Shown: positions 1 to 16,201 of the stretch, piece by piece
Position numbering within the stretch: the first letter of the stretch is position 1
Layout: every line of letters begins with the position of its first letter
IMG/VR virus record: IMGVR_UViG_3300045988_118631
Location: 1-16,201 of that record
Reading direction: 5' to 3' (one strand)
Origin: a virus
DNA length: 16,201 bases
Notes under the pieces: generated by a model
What the model was told of the DNA's origin: nothing
Database searches by the model: none
Seen by the model: the letters and a program-made list of their open reading frames with translations, nothing else
Made by a program: the position numbers and the translations under genes

Positions 1-55
1 AATATGGACTGTGACGCAATCCCGAGGTTGCAGGTTCGAGTCCTGTCGGAGGCGC
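1..55 (+). repeat. Terminal direct repeat, copy 1 (identical to 16147-16201)
   Basis: Read directly: aatatggactgtgacgcaatcccgaggttgcaggttcgagtcctgtcggaggcgc occurs at both window ends. The repeat is cut by the window edges, so its true extent is unknown. Confidence 0.97.
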
Positions 56-309
56 GTTTCCCGTCCGGTCGGAGTTACCAGATCTACGACCGAGACGCCT
101 AGCGCCCTGGCTAGACTGTCCAATTCTTCAAGCTGCCAGGGCCGTTCACCTCGCCACCGCTTGGTAATGGCACCCTGCGATATGCCGAGTCTTTGCCCTA
201 GTCGCACCTGGTTAAAGCCAGCCCGCGCCGCCTCGGCGCGAACGTTCGCCGCGACGACGTCGCGCGTCGTGATCGCGGGCGCGGGGGAGAAGCTAGTTAG
301 TGTGCTCAT
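1..309 (-). CDS. XRE-family helix-turn-helix repressor (cI-like), partial. ATG at 309-307; the ORF is still open at window position 1
   Basis: My own minus-strand translation: MSTLTSFSPAPAITTRDVVAANVRAEAARAGFNQVRLGQRLGISQGAITKRWRGERPWQLEELDSLARALGVSVVDLVTPTGRETRLRQDSNLQPRDCVTVHI... It is absent from the ORF track because it has no stop in the window. It has an HTH_XRE-type motif, is divergent from the cro-like gene, and its last ~35 codons overlie the tRNA-like segment. Confidence 0.8.
   Translation of the reverse strand, partial: MSTLTSFSPAPAITTRDVVAANVRAEAARAGFNQVRLGQRLGISQGAITKRWRGERPWQLEELDSLARALGVSVVDLVTPTGRETRLRQDSNLQPRDCVTVHI
20..54 (+). other. tRNA 3'-half-like segment (variable loop, T-arm, 3' acceptor strand, discriminator); candidate attP core. 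Duplicate at 16166-16200
   Basis: gcagg-TTCGAGT-cctgt is a canonical T-stem/T-loop (GGTTCGAGTCC). It is followed by a 7-nt acceptor strand cggaggc and discriminator g. Upstream sequence does not form an anticodon or D arm, so this is a tRNA fragment or mimic, as expected for an attP of a tRNA-targeting tyrosine integrase. Confidence 0.6.
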
Positions 310-319
310 GTGCCCATGA

Positions 320-331
320 TAGTCCAAAATG
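320..331 (+). promoter_or_regulatory. Candidate operator half/site 1 (TAGTCCAAAATG)
   Basis: 11/12 identical to 385-396. Lies next to the repressor start. Confidence 0.35.
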
Positions 332-384
332 GCATAAGAGTATGACCGCCGTACACAAATTAGCTGGCCTGTCCTGTTGATTAT

Positions 385-396
385 TAGTCCGAAATG
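385..396 (+). promoter_or_regulatory. Candidate operator half/site 2 (TAGTCCGAAATG)
   Basis: 11/12 identical to 320-331. It is embedded in the imperfect palindrome TAGTccgaaatgaACTA (385-401), just upstream of the cro-like ATG. Confidence 0.35.
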
Positions 397-411
397 AACT
401 AAACCAGCCGT

Positions 412-633
412 ATGACTCTCGCTCAGGACTTCGTCACCCTTGAAGTGACTCGATACATGCGCGCGGCTGGCCTCAATCAAGAGACCATGGCCGCATCAAT
501 TGGTGTCCAACAGTCCGTCCTCTCAAAAAAGCTCCTCGGTTTGCGCCGCTGGTCCATCAATGACCTGGATCGCTTAGCGGACGCGGGTGTCCCTATTCAT
601 CTCACCACATCGACGCTAGACCGGGAGCACTGA
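412..633 (+). CDS. Cro-like XRE-family HTH protein (73 aa)
   Basis: GLNQETMAASIGVQQSVLSKKLLGLRRWSINDLDRLADAGV aligns by eye with the repressor's GFNQVRLGQRLGISQGAITKRWRGERPWQLEELDSLARALGV. It is the first gene of the plus-strand block. Confidence 0.75.
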   Translation: MTLAQDFVTLEVTRYMRAAGLNQETMAASIGVQQSVLSKKLLGLRRWSINDLDRLADAGVPIHLTTSTLDREH

Positions 634-636
634 CTC

Positions 637-837
637 ATGAGCTATCGAATTGACTGGACCCAGTTCCTCGCCGCCCTCGTGGCGCTGGCATCCTATGGCG
701 CGACTATCGCCGCCATGTTCGCGTTCTACATCCCGTGGCCTATCACGGTCCCGCTCATGGCCGTGACCTTCATTGCCGCTGGCATCTGGTCGCACCGTCG
801 CGACGTGAACGAGATGGGAGATGCCTCCAATGAGTAA
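637..837 (+). CDS. Small membrane protein, two predicted TM helices (66 aa)
   Basis: GGGAG lies 9 nt upstream of the ATG. Hydrophobic stretches: FLAALVALASYGATIAAMFAFYI and ITVPLMAVTFIAAGIW. Confidence 0.65.
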   Translation: MSYRIDWTQFLAALVALASYGATIAAMFAFYIPWPITVPLMAVTFIAAGIWSHRRDVNEMGDASNE

Positions 838-4849: not shown

Positions 4850-5965
4850 ATGGCCTCCCTCGCATCCCTATTCGGCTTCCACCGCGCCGAGACCGGCGCG
4901 CCGATCCCAGCGGGCATCACGCCGCCCGCACGGGAAGCGGCGCTCATCACCGAGCGCGGCGCGCTCGCCCTGGACTCGGTCTATCGCGCCGTGAGTGTCC
5001 TCCAGGCCGCTGGCAAGCAAATCTCGCTCGATGCCTGGCGAGACGGCTCGCAGCTCGAAGGCCGCGACATGCCCACCGTCGTCGCGACGCCCGGCCCCGA
5101 TCTGACCCCTACGGCGCTCATTGCCGAGACAATCGCCAGCCTCGCCCTCCGAGGAAACGCCTATTGGCTCATTGGCCGTACCGGCGACGGGCGCGCAAAC
5201 TCGCTGCGCGTCCTGGACCCAACCCAGTGCCTTCCCGTCCTGGACAACAACACGGGCGAACGCAGCGTGCAATGGCGATCGCGCACCTGGAAACCCGATC
5301 AGATTCGGCACCTGCGATTGACCTACATCCCCGGCGAAGCCGCTGGCCTCGGCCCGATCCAGGCGTGCGCGCGATCCCTCCAGGGTGCAACCGAAATGGC
5401 ATCCTACGCCGCGAACTGGACCCACGGCGGCGGCGTGCCTACCGGCGTCCTATCCACGGAGCAGCCGATCACCGCCGCACAAGCTGCCGACGCTAAGCGC
5501 GCCTGGAATGACTCAAACTCCCAGAGCGGCGGCGTGGCCGTCATCGGCGCGGGACTCAAATACTCGCCCCTACACCTCACACCGAGTGAGATTCAGTTCC
5601 TGGAGTCCCGCGCCTTCGACGTCCTGGCAGTCGGTCGCATGTTTGGTATCCCCGCGCACATGCTCCTAGCGGCGGTGAACGGATCGAGTCTGACCTACCA
5701 GAACATTAACGACGCCGCGACGGACTTCATTCGGTGGACCCTCATGGCCTACCTCCGAGAGATCGAAGACGCCCTAACCGCAATCGTCCCGCGCGGTACG
5801 ACCGTTCGCTTCAACCTGGACGCGATCCTGCGCGCGACCCCCGCCGCCCGCATGGCTACACATAAGACCGCTATCGACGCCGGCATTTACACCCCCGAGT
5901 ATGCGCGCCGCATCGAAGGGATCACCGACGACGCCGCAACCGACAAGGACACCCCGCATGAATGA
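4850..5965 (+). CDS. Portal protein, HK97 family (371 aa)
   Basis: Size, position and HK97-portal-like stretches (LRGNAYWL, FLESRAFDV, MFGIPAHML). The stop overlaps the next start (ATGAATGA). Confidence 0.9.
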   Translation: MASLASLFGFHRAETGAPIPAGITPPAREAALITERGALALDSVYRAVSVLQAAGKQISLDAWRDGSQLEGRDMPTVVATPGPDLTPTALIAETIASLALRGNAYWLIGRTGDGRANSLRVLDPTQCLPVLDNNTGERSVQWRSRTWKPDQIRHLRLTYIPGEAAGLGPIQACARSLQGATEMASYAANWTHGGGVPTGVLSTEQPITAAQAADAKRAWNDSNSQSGGVAVIGAGLKYSPLHLTPSEIQFLESRAFDVLAVGRMFGIPAHMLLAAVNGSSLTYQNINDAATDFIRWTLMAYLREIEDALTAIVPRGTTVRFNLDAILRATPAARMATHKTAIDAGIYTPEYARRIEGITDDAATDKDTPHE

Positions 5966-7547
5966 CCTCCAGACCCGCCGCTTCGCCATCCGAGCCGACG
6001 CCGACGCCGAGCCGCGCACCGTGCGCGGCCTGGCCGTCCCCTACGGCGTCGAAATTGAGCTCGCCCCCGGCTACTTCGAGAGTATCGCGCCCGGCGCTCT
6101 CGCCGACCGAGCCGACGACGCGACCAGCCTCAAACTCGTGTGGCGACACGACGAACCCATTGGCCTGATTACCTCGGCTACCGAGACCGCCGAAGGTATC
6201 GAGATCGAAGCCCGTTTCTCGGACACGCAGACCGCCCGCGACGCCTACCAGCTAGTCAAGGACGGCGTCATTGACCGCCTCTCCATCGGCTTCATTCCGC
6301 TCACCTACGAACGCGCCGAAGCCGACGACGGCACGCACACCACCATTACCAGCCTGGACCTCCGAGAAGTCAGCCTGGTTCCCTTCCCTGCCTACGACGG
6401 CGCGACCGTGACCGAAGTACGCGAACAACCCACCCCCACCGAAAGGACAACCCCCATGACCGACGCACCCGCCTACGCGCTCGCCTCCGACCTGGACGAC
6501 CTGCGCGCCGACATCACCGCCATGGAGCAGCGCGCGACCCTCGCCGCCGCCGAGCGCGGCACCGCCCCCGCCGCCGACAAGCGCACCCCCGGCGAAGCCA
6601 TTAAGGCCCTCATCAACGATGAGGCATACCGCGCCGAGATCGCCGCGATCCAGACCCGCGCCTTCAACGGCACTCCCTCCAGTGCGGATGCAACCATGGT
6701 TGTCCCCGAATGGATCAAGGATCTGACGCGCATCGTCGATAAGCCCAACGTCCTGGCCGGGCTGTTCTCGCGCGGCGCTCTCCCCGCCGATGGGATGGAG
6801 CTCGACTTTACCGAGCTCGCGACCAACACCCTGACCGTGAACGCACAGACCGCCGAAGGTGCTGATCTCCAGATGGGTAAGATCACCACCAAGAAGCGCA
6901 GCGCGCCGATCAAGACCTTCGGCGGTTATACCGAGCTCTCTCGCCAGGCGATTGAGCGTACCCGCGTCAATCTCCTGGACACGTCCCTGCGCGGCATGGC
7001 TATCGCCGCTGGCCAGGCCTCGGCCTCCTACTTCGCCACGCAGTTCGCCACCGCCGTCAAGGCGCAGGACGCCTCCAAGCTCGCCGTCTCCAAGGCCGCG
7101 ACCGCCCTCACCTGGTCGGACATCTCCGGTATCTTCATCGACGCCGCCGCGCGATTCGCCGACCAGGCCCTGACCCTGGACGGCCTGGTTGTCGATCTCG
7201 CGACCTTCAAGGCGCTTTCCGGCCTGACCGGCACGGACGGACGCCCGCTCATGCGAGCCACCGAGAACCCCACCAACACGATTGGCACGACGAACGCCAA
7301 GGCCCTGACCGGCGTCATTCTCGATGTGCCCGTGACCTGCAACCTGCGCGCGACCGCTGGCGAGCTCGGCGCGGGCATCGTGGGCGCGTTCTACAACTCC
7401 GAGGCGATCCGCACCTACGAGACCCCGCTTGTTCAGCTTCAGGATGAGAACATTGTCAACCTGAGCAAGCAGTTCTCGGTCTATCGCTACGGGGCCGTGG
7501 CTACCGAAATTCCGACCGGCCTCGTGCCCCTGAAGATCGGGGCCTGA
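5958..7547 (+). CDS. Prohead protease (HK97 family) fused in frame to an HK97-fold major capsid protein (529 aa from ATG 5958)
   Basis: The N-terminal ~165 aa carries protease motifs (RGLAVPYG, LKLVWRHDEPIG, DRLSIGF, REVSLVPFPAY). The rest has a coiled-coil N-arm and a capsid-like body. No stop occurs between the two parts. ATG 5958 overlaps the portal stop; the track start 5901 lies inside the portal gene. Confidence 0.85.
   Translation: MNDLQTRRFAIRADADAEPRTVRGLAVPYGVEIELAPGYFESIAPGALADRADDATSLKLVWRHDEPIGLITSATETAEGIEIEARFSDTQTARDAYQLVKDGVIDRLSIGFIPLTYERAEADDGTHTTITSLDLREVSLVPFPAYDGATVTEVREQPTPTERTTPMTDAPAYALASDLDDLRADITAMEQRATLAAAERGTAPAADKRTPGEAIKALINDEAYRAEIAAIQTRAFNGTPSSADATMVVPEWIKDLTRIVDKPNVLAGLFSRGALPADGMELDFTELATNTLTVNAQTAEGADLQMGKITTKKRSAPIKTFGGYTELSRQAIERTRVNLLDTSLRGMAIAAGQASASYFATQFATAVKAQDASKLAVSKAATALTWSDISGIFIDAAARFADQALTLDGLVVDLATFKALSGLTGTDGRPLMRATENPTNTIGTTNAKALTGVILDVPVTCNLRATAGELGAGIVGAFYNSEAIRTYETPLVQLQDENIVNLSKQFSVYRYGAVATEIPTGLVPLKIGA
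6456..7547 (+). CDS. Possible nested in-frame major capsid protein from an internal start (363 aa)
   Basis: GAAAGGACAACCCCCATG at 6441-6458 copies the RBS context of the endolysin start (GAAAGGACACCAACCATG) and the chaperone start (GTAAGGACACCACCCATG). The ATG sits exactly at the protease/capsid domain boundary. Confidence 0.4.
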   Translation: MTDAPAYALASDLDDLRADITAMEQRATLAAAERGTAPAADKRTPGEAIKALINDEAYRAEIAAIQTRAFNGTPSSADATMVVPEWIKDLTRIVDKPNVLAGLFSRGALPADGMELDFTELATNTLTVNAQTAEGADLQMGKITTKKRSAPIKTFGGYTELSRQAIERTRVNLLDTSLRGMAIAAGQASASYFATQFATAVKAQDASKLAVSKAATALTWSDISGIFIDAAARFADQALTLDGLVVDLATFKALSGLTGTDGRPLMRATENPTNTIGTTNAKALTGVILDVPVTCNLRATAGELGAGIVGAFYNSEAIRTYETPLVQLQDENIVNLSKQFSVYRYGAVATEIPTGLVPLKIGA

Positions 7548-14784: not shown

Positions 14785-15236
14785 CGCCCGCCGCCGAGGT
14801 TATCAACGCACTCGGTGGCCTCGGCGGCGTCGCCGCCATCGTGACAAGCACGGCGACGTTGATACAGGCGCGGCGAATCAACGCCCAAGTTAGCCCTAAT
14901 CACGGTTCCAGCCTTGCCGACGCCGTAAACCGGACTGACGCAAAGACAGCCGAAGCCGTCGCCGCCGTGAGCCGTCTAGAAGATGCGCTTTCCTCGCACT
15001 CTAGCGCCATTGAGCGTATAGAGAGCGCCCTCACCACCAACGGCGAAACAGTGCGTCGCATCGAGACCGAGCAGACCAAGACCGCCGCCGACGTCATGGT
15101 CGCCCGGCATCAGATCGAGGGACTGGCCCGTGAGCTCAAAGGCCTTGGGCATGAGATCGGAGACATCCGATCTACCCGTGATCGAGAGCATGGCGACTAT
15201 GACGCCCGGATCAGGTCACTGGAGGGACGCGCCTAG
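14781..15236 (+). CDS. N-terminally membrane-anchored coiled-coil protein (151 aa), possible lysis accessory
   Basis: ATGA-coupled to the holin. Has the TM segment LGGLGGVAAIVTSTATLI, then heptad-like, charge-rich sequence. The track start 14610 lies inside the holin gene. Confidence 0.6.
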   Translation: MTPAAEVINALGGLGGVAAIVTSTATLIQARRINAQVSPNHGSSLADAVNRTDAKTAEAVAAVSRLEDALSSHSSAIERIESALTTNGETVRRIETEQTKTAADVMVARHQIEGLARELKGLGHEIGDIRSTRDREHGDYDARIRSLEGRA

Positions 15237-16054
15237 GCCACCGCCTCAACCACTGCCCTAAGCGTCTGGTCCGCTATCGCCAGGTAACGGAGGGTGGTTT
15301 GTGGTGATTCGTGCCCTAGCACCCTCTGGACGGCGACAAGATCGCCCGTCCGTTCGTAGGCTCGCGTCGCGAACGAATGGCGCAGGGCGTGCATTGTGAC
15401 GCCGCGTGGCAGTGCACGCCCAACCAGTCGCCCGATCCACTCAGCCGAGACATGGCCCGAATCGGCCCCTGGAAACAGCCAGCCGGGGCCGTGGCCTTGA
15501 ATCTCTACGGCGATTGACTCGGGTACTGGCACCGTCCGAGGTTTCCCGCCCTTCCCGTGGACGATCAGAGACCAGCCATGCAAGTCGCGAACGAGGTCGC
15601 AGCCGCGCACCTTCGCGACCTCGCCGCGACGTAACCCGAGCTCCGAGGCCAGGCGCACCGCCAGACGCACCCGCCAGTCAGGGGATAGCCTGGCGCGGGC
15701 AATCGCGGCGGCGTCGGCTGGCCTCGGCGCGGGCGCAGACGCGCGCACCGTAGGGACGCGGCTCGGATCGACACCAACCGCGTGCCGCTCGCCCGCCCAC
15801 GCATAGAACCCTGCGACGGACTGGAGAGCGCTACGGCGCGTGTCTCGCGCCCAAACGTGCGCAGCGGACCACTCGATCACGTCGCCTGTCTCCACCTCCC
15901 ACGGGCCGCGATCCACAGCGCGGGCAAACCGTCGCAGCCAGTCGATCCGCAGCCTCGTTGTTGCTACCGAGCGGCCCGATCCAAGCAGGTGCAACCGGTA
16001 ATCTCCCAGTGGCGCGTCCCAGCCGCCCGGCACTAATGCTTTGCGTATAACCAT
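15233..16054 (-). CDS. int: Tyrosine integrase/recombinase (273 aa from ATG 16054)
   Basis: Catalytic signature LGLRRGE (Arg), HGKGGK (Lys), HALRHSFAT (His-x-x-Arg), LGHES, LRYL (Tyr). Lies next to the tRNA-like segment. The upstream part of the track ORF (to 16165) overlaps the att/tRNA-like repeat and is unlikely to be coding. GTG at 16060 is an alternative start. Confidence 0.92.
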   Translation of the reverse strand: MVIRKALVPGGWDAPLGDYRLHLLGSGRSVATTRLRIDWLRRFARAVDRGPWEVETGDVIEWSAAHVWARDTRRSALQSVAGFYAWAGERHAVGVDPSRVPTVRASAPAPRPADAAAIARARLSPDWRVRLAVRLASELGLRRGEVAKVRGCDLVRDLHGWSLIVHGKGGKPRTVPVPESIAVEIQGHGPGWLFPGADSGHVSAEWIGRLVGRALPRGVTMHALRHSFATRAYERTGDLVAVQRVLGHESPQTTLRYLAIADQTLRAVVEAVA

Positions 16055-16092
16055 GCTCACATACTCACCCGATACGCCCAATGCCGCGCGCG

Positions 16093-16201
16093 CTACGCCG
16101 CCGCGCCCGATCCGACGTGCGATAACGAGGCCTCCAAAGTGTTCAGAATATGGACTGTGACGCAATCCCGAGGTTGCAGGTTCGAGTCCTGTCGGAGGCG
16201 C
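16093..16201 (-). CDS. 3' end of the same repressor ORF when the frame is followed across the 55-nt overlap (circular/viral form, total 120 aa)
   Basis: Continuing the frame of 309..1 into 16146..16093 gives ...HILNTLEASLSHVGSGAAA, then TAG (16095-16093). This is valid only if the molecule is circular. Confidence 0.5.
   Translation of the reverse strand, partial: RLRQDSNLQPRDCVTVHILNTLEASLSHVGSGAAA
16147..16201 (+). repeat. Terminal direct repeat, copy 2 (identical to 1-55)
   Basis: Exact 55/55 match to the window start. Confidence 0.97.

Follow-up and report, generated by a model that had tools for sequence, protein, structure and literature searches.

Integration-dependent immunity has been defined by a cassette of the order int-rep-cro, about 2 kb long, with the phage attachment site attP inside the repressor gene rep, by a tagged viral repressor, a shorter stable prophage repressor and a tagged integrase (Int), and by the absence of xis, cII and cIII (PMC3694055, PMC4557955). 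The stretch analysed here, the IMG/VR virus record IMGVR_UViG_3300045988_118631, is called the window over its whole length of 16,201 nucleotides (nt). Around the junction of its two ends it holds a cassette of int (15233-16054, minus strand), rep (309..1/16146..16093, minus strand) and a cro-like gene (412-633, plus strand), and this locus is very probably an integration-dependent immunity switch, as had been proposed in a first reading of the sequence (the original prediction). The cassette layout, attP within rep, a shortened prophage repressor, an integrase of the arm-less type and a bacterial attachment site (attB) at a tRNA 3' end are all present. The comparison builds on the following features.

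1..309, minus strand: repressor codons 1-103 (ATG 309), from translation, HTH_3 and PHROG matches, homologues and an AlphaFold2 (AF2) model.
16093..16164, minus strand: repressor tail of the viral form only, codons 98-120 CVTVHILNTLEASLSHVGSGAAA (16164-16096) plus TAG 16095-16093.
18..55, second copy at 16164-16201, plus strand: att common core of 38 bp, AATCCCGAGGTTGCAGGTTCGAGTCCTGTCGGAGGCGC, from tRNA identity and the limits of the prophage junctions attL and attR.
1..55, no strand: left copy of a 55-nt terminal duplication, 17 nt phage-specific plus the 38-nt att core.
16055..16092, minus strand: 38-nt spacer between the rep stop and the int start, from the coordinates.
15233..16054, minus strand (ATG 16054): tyrosine integrase of 273 amino acids (aa), Phage_integrase E=5e-16, C-terminus ...VVEAVA.
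412..633, plus strand: cro-like helix-turn-helix (HTH) gene of 73 aa, weak HTH_31 and HTH_3 matches, phrog_2328 E=1e-6.

Like the window, the mycobacteriophages BPs (Cluster G), Brujita (Cluster I1) and Charlie (Cluster N) carry int and rep leftward and cro rightward within approximately 1.4-2 kb. The repressor frame runs through the core antisense to the T-arm of the tRNA, encoding ...PEGFEPPTF... in BPs, ...GESNPRP... in Brujita and ...QDSNLQPRD in the window, and from the viral to the prophage form the repressor shortens from 136 to 103 aa in BPs and from 120 to 97 aa in the window. In the window phage as in the BPs-type phages attB is the 3' end of a tRNA gene, a tRNA-Arg in the case of BPs, and an excisionase has been recognized in neither. 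Small-residue C-termini are shared with Brujita, where Rep ends with -HAA and Int with -SAA (-LSAA). On the other hand, the window genome has 16 kb as compared to 41-47 kb in the mycobacteriophages and its host belongs to the oral Actinomycetaceae, the control region comprises 102 nt versus about 200 nt and Int 273 aa versus 398 and 318 aa, and the system is known from sequence alone, whereas that of BPs and Brujita has been studied experimentally. The likeness to BPs, Brujita and Charlie that the original prediction had drawn is borne out, as the published definition is matched in structure and the integrase is 43% identical to the BPs Int, gp32, over 274 aa (gp32 residues 60-333; E=3e-58).

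This reading is supported by natural junctions. The 38-mer core was scanned across IMG/VR and the GTDB species genomes, and all four types of site, attB, attP, attL and attR, were recovered from natural assemblies. The tRNA-like segment, placed by the original prediction at about 20-54, is real, but its exact extent is 18-55, where it is identical to the host tRNA-Arg(TCT) from A37 through the first C of CCA (38 nt). It covers codons 85-98 of the 120-codon repressor open reading frame (ORF), of which codons 85-97 (RLRQDSNLQPRD) are antisense to the tRNA-derived core. The search for attB among high-GC actinobacteria, proposed together with the recovery of integrated copies, led to both: empty attB sites, in which the tRNA-Arg is followed by host flank, were found 22 times, in genomes of Schaalia, Pauljensenia or the 'Actinomyces sp. 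ICM47' type. At attP phage DNA lies on both sides of the core, while attL has the order host tRNA 5' half, core and rep, and attR the order int with the tail-coding piece, core and host flank, the flanks matching those of the empty attB sites. Homology to the phage has its limit at position 18 in every attL and at position 55 in every attR, which places the crossover within the repressor ORF, as had been postulated, and the tRNA-Arg(TCT) is left intact at attL as judged by ARAGORN. Among the integrated copies, L017 is the attL junction of a phage with 95% identity to the window, and L013 that of a phage with 88% identity over rep-cro (window 18-675), which lies beside host Na/H-exchanger and L32 genes. 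One attB record carries the label Sanguibacter (L068, NZ_JVOJ01000036.1, Sanguibacter keddieii strain 250_SKED); its tRNA-Arg core is exactly that of the Schaalia type and its flank resembles those of Schaalia attB sites, and the genome may be mislabelled or contaminated.

Read in the repressor frame, the host-side junctions (attB or attL) give ...QPRD-stop without exception (45/45), and the phage-side junctions (attP or attR; n=26) all enter the tail, 24 of them reaching a stop after 23 or 12 tail residues and two leaving the contig end. The repressor product is thus altered by integration, as the original prediction had claimed. Past the core the phage reads TGC (Cys98) and the host TAG, of which the T is contributed by the core and AG complements C35 and U36 of the anticodon. 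The expected replacement of the last 20-25 repressor codons by antisense host tRNA sequence is therefore right with respect to the loss, which amounts to 23 codons, but the anticodon-derived TAG follows immediately and no translated replacement arises. The relocation of int to the opposite prophage end, also foreseen, is seen in the complete prophage IMG/VR 3300045988_136470 (16,350 nt, attL L036 to attR L039) and in the lysogenic metagenome-assembled genome (MAG) MGYG-HGUT-01273, which has both junctions (L070, L061); in both, int lies beside host flank at the far prophage end. Since all four att types and both isoforms occur in natural assemblies, the truncation is documented and, in contrast to most predicted cases, not merely reconstructed. 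That integration is coupled to truncation of the repressor and to separation of int is, judged from these assembled junctions, almost certain.

The repressor gene and its homologues tell the same two-form story. The minus strand is open from ATG 309 to position 1 (103 codons) and, followed past the junction, the frame runs to the stop TAG 16095-16093, which makes a protein of 120 aa whose tail reads ...LEASLSHVGSGAAA. All coordinates given at the outset were right. The 120-aa product consists of an XRE-type HTH followed by the tail ...QPRDCVTVHILNTLEASLSHVGSGAAA; HTH_3 is recognized at residues 29-77 (E=2e-6), and phrog_4583 'transcriptional repressor' matches with E=2e-16. Among its 51 database homologues, those of 120 aa and 109 aa are encoded on contigs of about 16-17 kb, and those of 92, 97 and 103 aa all terminate exactly with ...QDSNLQPRD; on contigs with a short form, the end of the repressor gene overlaps an intact tRNA-Arg(TCT) gene of the opposite strand. 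Both isoforms exist in near-identical lineages (P0002 with 120 aa, P0015 ending with QPRD). In an AF2 model built with 28 homologues, the HTH at residues ~15-78 has a predicted local distance difference test (pLDDT) score >90, while confidence is low for residues 80-120, which include a weak helix at 100-114; the last six residues are unstructured and would therefore be accessible. Some more distant repressors deserve mention in their own right. A prophage in the isolate genome of Boudabousia marimammalium (GCA_001936115.1; L006:10001-10372) has a repressor 46% identical to that of the window, which ends within a tRNA-Asn(GTT), its stop TAA likewise stemming from the anticodon loop, and in the relatives P0039, P0040, P0042 and P0043 a different tRNA motif, GLEPPTF or GLEPAT, is read through.

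The 120-aa form requires that rep and int are adjacent across the ends of the window, and this is the case. Positions 1-55 equal 16147-16201 exactly, with no match at the 56th base, and subtraction of one repeat copy leaves a unit of 16,146 bp with a G+C content of 64.7%. A MEGAHIT contig with another break point (ERZ27263341 k119_86974, 16,143 nt) is 100% identical through rep-core-int and encodes the same exact integrase, rep is followed by int in a two-unit tandem scaffold of 31.8 kb of a related phage, and more than 10 IMG/VR contigs hold the rep-core-int junction internally. The 55-nt repeat is the assembly overlap of a circular phage genome, and the circular junction with adjacent rep and int, on which the original prediction depended, is upheld by independent contigs that run across it. 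That the window might instead be a prophage excised by software, with the 55 bp as attL/attR repeats, rep and int never adjacent and the 120-aa form an artefact, is suggested by the resemblance of terminal direct repeats with a tRNA 3' end to prophage boundaries; this explanation is extremely improbable in view of the differently broken contig, the tandem scaffold and the internal junctions just mentioned. Furthermore, 17 nt of the repeat are absent from attB, so that the repeat exceeds the true 38-bp core, and at real attL and attR junctions host sequence takes the place of the phage sequence present in the window. The contigs crossing the junction refute the idea that the repeat marks prophage boundaries. 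The length of the repeat (17+38=55) probably reflects a vertex of a k=55 assembly graph at which the attP and attR paths diverge and at which the circular path was cut; the same 17+38 pattern is found at the ends of L064 and L066. The window is thus best explained as the circular, non-integrated genome of a small temperate siphovirus that infects oral Schaalia/Pauljensenia. The tandem scaffold (L010, VALL22-1 scaffold_625, 31.8 kb) consists of two head-to-tail copies of a 16.3-kb genome, either a replication concatemer caught by assembly or an assembler going twice round the circle.

At the same end of the window a tRNA gene is called that would compete with the repressor tail for the same DNA.

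16130..16201, plus strand: pseudo-tRNA of 72 nt, called tRNA-Val(GAC) by ARAGORN, derived from tRNA-Arg in its last 38 nt only.

Were this a functional phage tRNA-Val gene, the antisense ORF would be spurious, for which there is hardly any probability left. Apart from the ARAGORN call itself, an Rfam scan of the window gave no tRNA match at E<=1, so that the call is regarded as a pseudo-tRNA; a real tRNA, Arg-TCT, is matched by the 3' 38 nt alone, whereas the 5' half varies among the relatives, which breaks the acceptor stem, and the antisense ORF is conserved with its 51 homologues. A whole tRNA-Val at 16130-16201 was accordingly discarded: the 3' 38 nt alone are tRNA-derived, and the 5' part belongs to the phage, codes for the repressor tail on the opposite strand and is not kept as tRNA among relatives. 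Automatic annotation would spread the false tRNA-Val call to attP and to every attR.

At the sequence level, recombination of attP by Int with the 3' half of the host tRNA-Arg(TCT) splits rep. At attL the repressor ends at D97, because the next codon turns into TAG by the joining of the core T to the host anticodon AG, and at attR the tail-coding piece together with int is found at the opposite end of the prophage, preceded by host DNA. The analogy with BPs and Brujita suggests that the tail would serve as an ssrA-like degradation tag, so that the viral form would be unstable and confer no immunity, and the 97-aa prophage form would be stable and repress the rightward early promoter. By the same analogy Int, which ends with -AVA, would be sensitive to proteolysis, with the consequence that the Int level would decide on the establishment of lysogeny, and a separate excisionase would not be required.

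The tail is found at every attP and attR junction and at no attB or attL junction. Seventeen distinct tails are available, 12 with 23 codons and five with 12 codons, and in all of these tail-coding sequences the open frame through and past the core is retained in phages with 70-95% DNA identity. All 12 distinct 23-codon tails end with A-[A/V]-A; across three classes the endings are GAAA, TQAA or VAVA, the window repressor having the C-terminus ...GSGAAA. The 12-residue tail CVTLSDIWTQAA characterizes a second lineage (L010:10318-10393, L019, L029, L031, L039, L061), which owing to small indels in the DNA of the 23-residue tail is read in a different frame and still ends with -AA. Distant relatives on other tRNAs have repressor ORFs that end with -VAA, -MAS, -VSA or -TVAA. 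These endings and the AF2 model fit an exposed C-terminal degradation tag, without amounting to proof, and we infer the degradation-tag mechanism from homology and the conserved endings, as the original prediction had likewise done for the tail. In BPs the tag of the viral Rep ends with -KAS, and the substitution A135E stabilizes the protein (PMC4557955); it also raises the frequency of lysogeny in BPs.

A number of observations weigh against this interpretation. BLASTP of the repressor against BPs gp33 gave no match, and a probability of 39% with hhalign reflects a generic HTH; in the comparison with a mycobacteriophage repressor that the original prediction had asked for, gp33 thus turns out to be unrelated beyond the HTH. 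Alignment to the Rep of the Gordonia phage Emperor with hhalign (probability 75%) equally shows generic HTH similarity only, wherefore the repressor family is not grouped with those repressors, and tblastn of the repressor against phages yielded a single weak match, to the Gordonia phage Pipp. How stable the two repressor forms are, whether they depend on ClpXP and what immunity they confer is predicted from sequence. A scan of positions 1-700 for a sigma-70 consensus promoter and a terminator found neither. With respect to excision, the ORFs 637-837, 821-1021, 1018-1221 and 2224-2469 gave no Pfam/PHROG excisionase match, but such small early ORFs with no annotated function could hide a recombination directionality factor. 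Finally, an ending with AA is no strict rule of the family, as the -KAS of BPs illustrates, and the ratio of nonsynonymous to synonymous diversity (pN/pS) is 0.54 in the tail versus 0.13 in the HTH part, so that constraint on the tail is weak at the protein level; a pS of 0.26 in the tail-coding DNA (16096-16164) versus 0.48 in the HTH-coding part suggests that conservation is partly at the DNA level, as might be the case with Int binding sites in attP.

The weak protein-level constraint on the tail and a conservation that may be partly at the DNA level would also be expected if the overlap of attP and rep were an accident of compaction in a packed 16-kb genome, with the tail as harmless read-through, immunity by a CI/Cro switch of the conventional kind, and two repressor forms of equal activity and stability. 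Such an origin, although in line with the toleration of two very different tail lengths of 23 and 12 residues and with the finding that both BPs repressor forms bind DNA alike (PMC4557955), is improbable. Accidental read-through would not readily account for the retention of frame, exact length and terminal A-[A/V]-A across the 17 distinct sequences, nor for the convergence of the frame-shifted short tail class on -QAA; distant relatives on other tRNAs end with -AA, -VA, -AS or -SA, and Int has a like ending. Moreover, the homologous int cassette of BPs and Brujita is integration-dependent by experiment (PMC3694055), and in the window neither cII/cIII nor an excisionase is recognized and there is no second promoter-bearing gap between rep and int, which are separated by only 38 nt. 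Integration-dependent immunity consequently stays the preferred reading of the locus.

The integrase, with its ATG at 16054 located 38 nt past the repressor stop on the same strand as originally described, adds to the relationship. Its top phage matches are the integrases of Gordonia phages Emperor and SallySpecial, of Cluster G mycobacteriophages and of Gordonia phages GMA5 and GRU3, and Brujita Int (PDB 5vfz) aligns over residues 24-264 with E=9e-14. The catalytic domain occupies residues 126-263, and the ~120 remaining residues fit a core-binding domain alone with no arm-binding domain, which points to an 'arm-less' integrase of the BPs/Brujita type. In the family the integrase C-termini are -EAVA or -EAAA, and the -AVA ending of the window integrase is compatible with a putative C-terminal degradation signal. 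Following the BPs model (PMC4557955), rep and int would be co-transcribed.

On the other side of rep, the divergent cro-like gene at 412 is a paralogue of the repressor, as predicted, the two proteins being 33% identical over 54 residues (pairwise E=2e-9). The region between the two genes is composed as follows.

310..411, no strand: rep-cro control region of 102 nt with two 17-bp operator-like sites.
320-336, no strand: operator-like site TAGTCCAAAATGGCATA, TAGTCC-AAAAT-GGCATA, of 6-5-6 design.
385-401, no strand: operator-like site TAGTCCGAAATGAACTA, TAGTCC-GAAAT-GAACTA, of 6-5-6 design.

The two sites share a 12-nt direct repeat (320-331 and 385-396), and one of them adjoins each start codon, that of rep and that of the cro-like gene. 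Both are conserved; from one immunity group of the related phages to another they change in concert, and some lineages have them as clear palindromes, for example TTATGCC-ATAGC-GGCATAA (L019). This pattern suggests that the 17-bp sites are candidate operators that may define the immunity groups.

Small phages with a similar genome plan exist in Gordonia, where Emperor (16.6 kb), SallySpecial (15.9 kb) and the Cluster CW phages GMA5, GRU3 and Jeanie (17.1-17.7 kb) are of the size of the window phage. They share with it the gene order of HNH, small and large terminase, portal, protease-capsid fusion, tail genes, leftward int-rep and rightward HTH, and their integrases are 42-44% identical to the window Int. 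In Emperor the Rep contains the tRNA antisense motif IRDSNPEPAD and ends with -VAA, and Int ends with -WAA (-TWAA). For the Cluster CW phages, whose attP core of 37 bp lies in a tRNA, integration dependence has already been described (PMC5559632). The window phage differs from the small Gordonia phages by the lack of nucleotide similarity, by a host of another order and by the placement of the lysis genes, and its tRNA target is Arg(TCT) versus Lys in Cluster CW. It does not belong to Cluster CW or an Emperor-like cluster, as nucleotide and gene-content similarity are insufficient, while the architecture is shared. A whole-genome megablast against GenBank phages returned nothing beyond 264 nt of tape-measure sequence matching Microbacterium phages, and the large terminase shares only ~37% identity with its nearest counterparts, those in small phages of Arthrobacter, Curtobacterium and Gordonia. 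The protease-capsid fusion of the window is a single ORF of 548 aa at 5901-7547 with a Peptidase_S78 prohead protease and a major capsid domain (Phage_capsid_4, precomputed hits); Emperor gene 10 is the same fusion.

A second precedent is provided by the Bifidobacterium breve prophages Bb423phi2 and 689b-1 of ~18 kb, which reside in tRNA-Met with a 39-bp att core, and for which excision in silico lengthens the repressor C-terminus by 18 residues that carry an ssrA-like tag (PMC6109161). Like the window phage, these are small phages of human-associated actinobacteria with int at one prophage end and rep at the other, while host and tRNA differ. For B. breve the viral form exists only in silico and no excision has been seen, whereas both forms of the window phage family occur in natural assemblies. 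Such a switch in a 16-kb phage other than a mycobacteriophage is not the novelty that had been claimed, since it has already been assigned to Cluster CW (PMC5559632) and to the B. breve prophages (PMC6109161); with these precedents, novelty in a small non-mycobacterial phage falls. A literature search found no paper that links integration-dependent immunity to Actinomyces or Schaalia. The window phage is a new example of a known switch design in a new host group, and the mechanism is not new.

The same host attB also harbours relics of the repressor. In oral metagenome contigs (L007-L009, L002-L005) an 807-bp insert (L007:9433-10239) lies between the tRNA-Arg(TCT) and the host MTHFR flank, of which ~29 nt are deleted. 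The relic contains an intact 92-aa repressor of the truncated, presumably stable form ending with QPRD*, and a search for a second core copy found none; cro and int are missing as well. Relic repressors differ mostly by synonymous changes (pS 0.33, pN 0.066, pN/pS about 0.2), indicative of purifying selection. In MAG ERR589714_bin.35, the start of one contig (L066:1-80) reads 17 nt of phage-left sequence plus core, then the relic repressor and the host MTHFR flank, and an attL (L064) and a free attP contig (L054) come from this MAG as well. Such an arrangement suggests that a prophage has integrated beside the relic and re-fused the relic repressor to a viral tail, a reconstruction that depends on a 55-mer overlap and one additional base. 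Whether the relic is a domesticated immunity gene directed against the whole phage family, which a newcomer would re-tag by its integration so that immunity would pass to the newcomer, is a thought we consider rather doubtful. The relic contig L002 (ena:ERZ27319201:k141_810116) was rejected as a long lysogen contig, for its gene order is mirrored around the relic. It has MTHFR, MetE, a regulator, threonine dehydratase, RNase T and SSB on both relic sides in opposite orientation, and looks like a palindromic MEGAHIT mis-assembly.

With respect to significance, the understanding of the switch mechanism is unchanged by the window phage. The range of integration-dependent immunity, however, now includes phages whose hosts are human oral Actinomycetaceae (Schaalia/Pauljensenia, the oral 'Actinomyces odontolyticus' group), and the phage family is common in oral metagenomes, with repressor clusters of dozens to more than 100 member sequences. 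With its 38-bp core, the int-attP-rep-cro cassette could become an integration vector or a switch for the poorly tractable oral actinomycetes.

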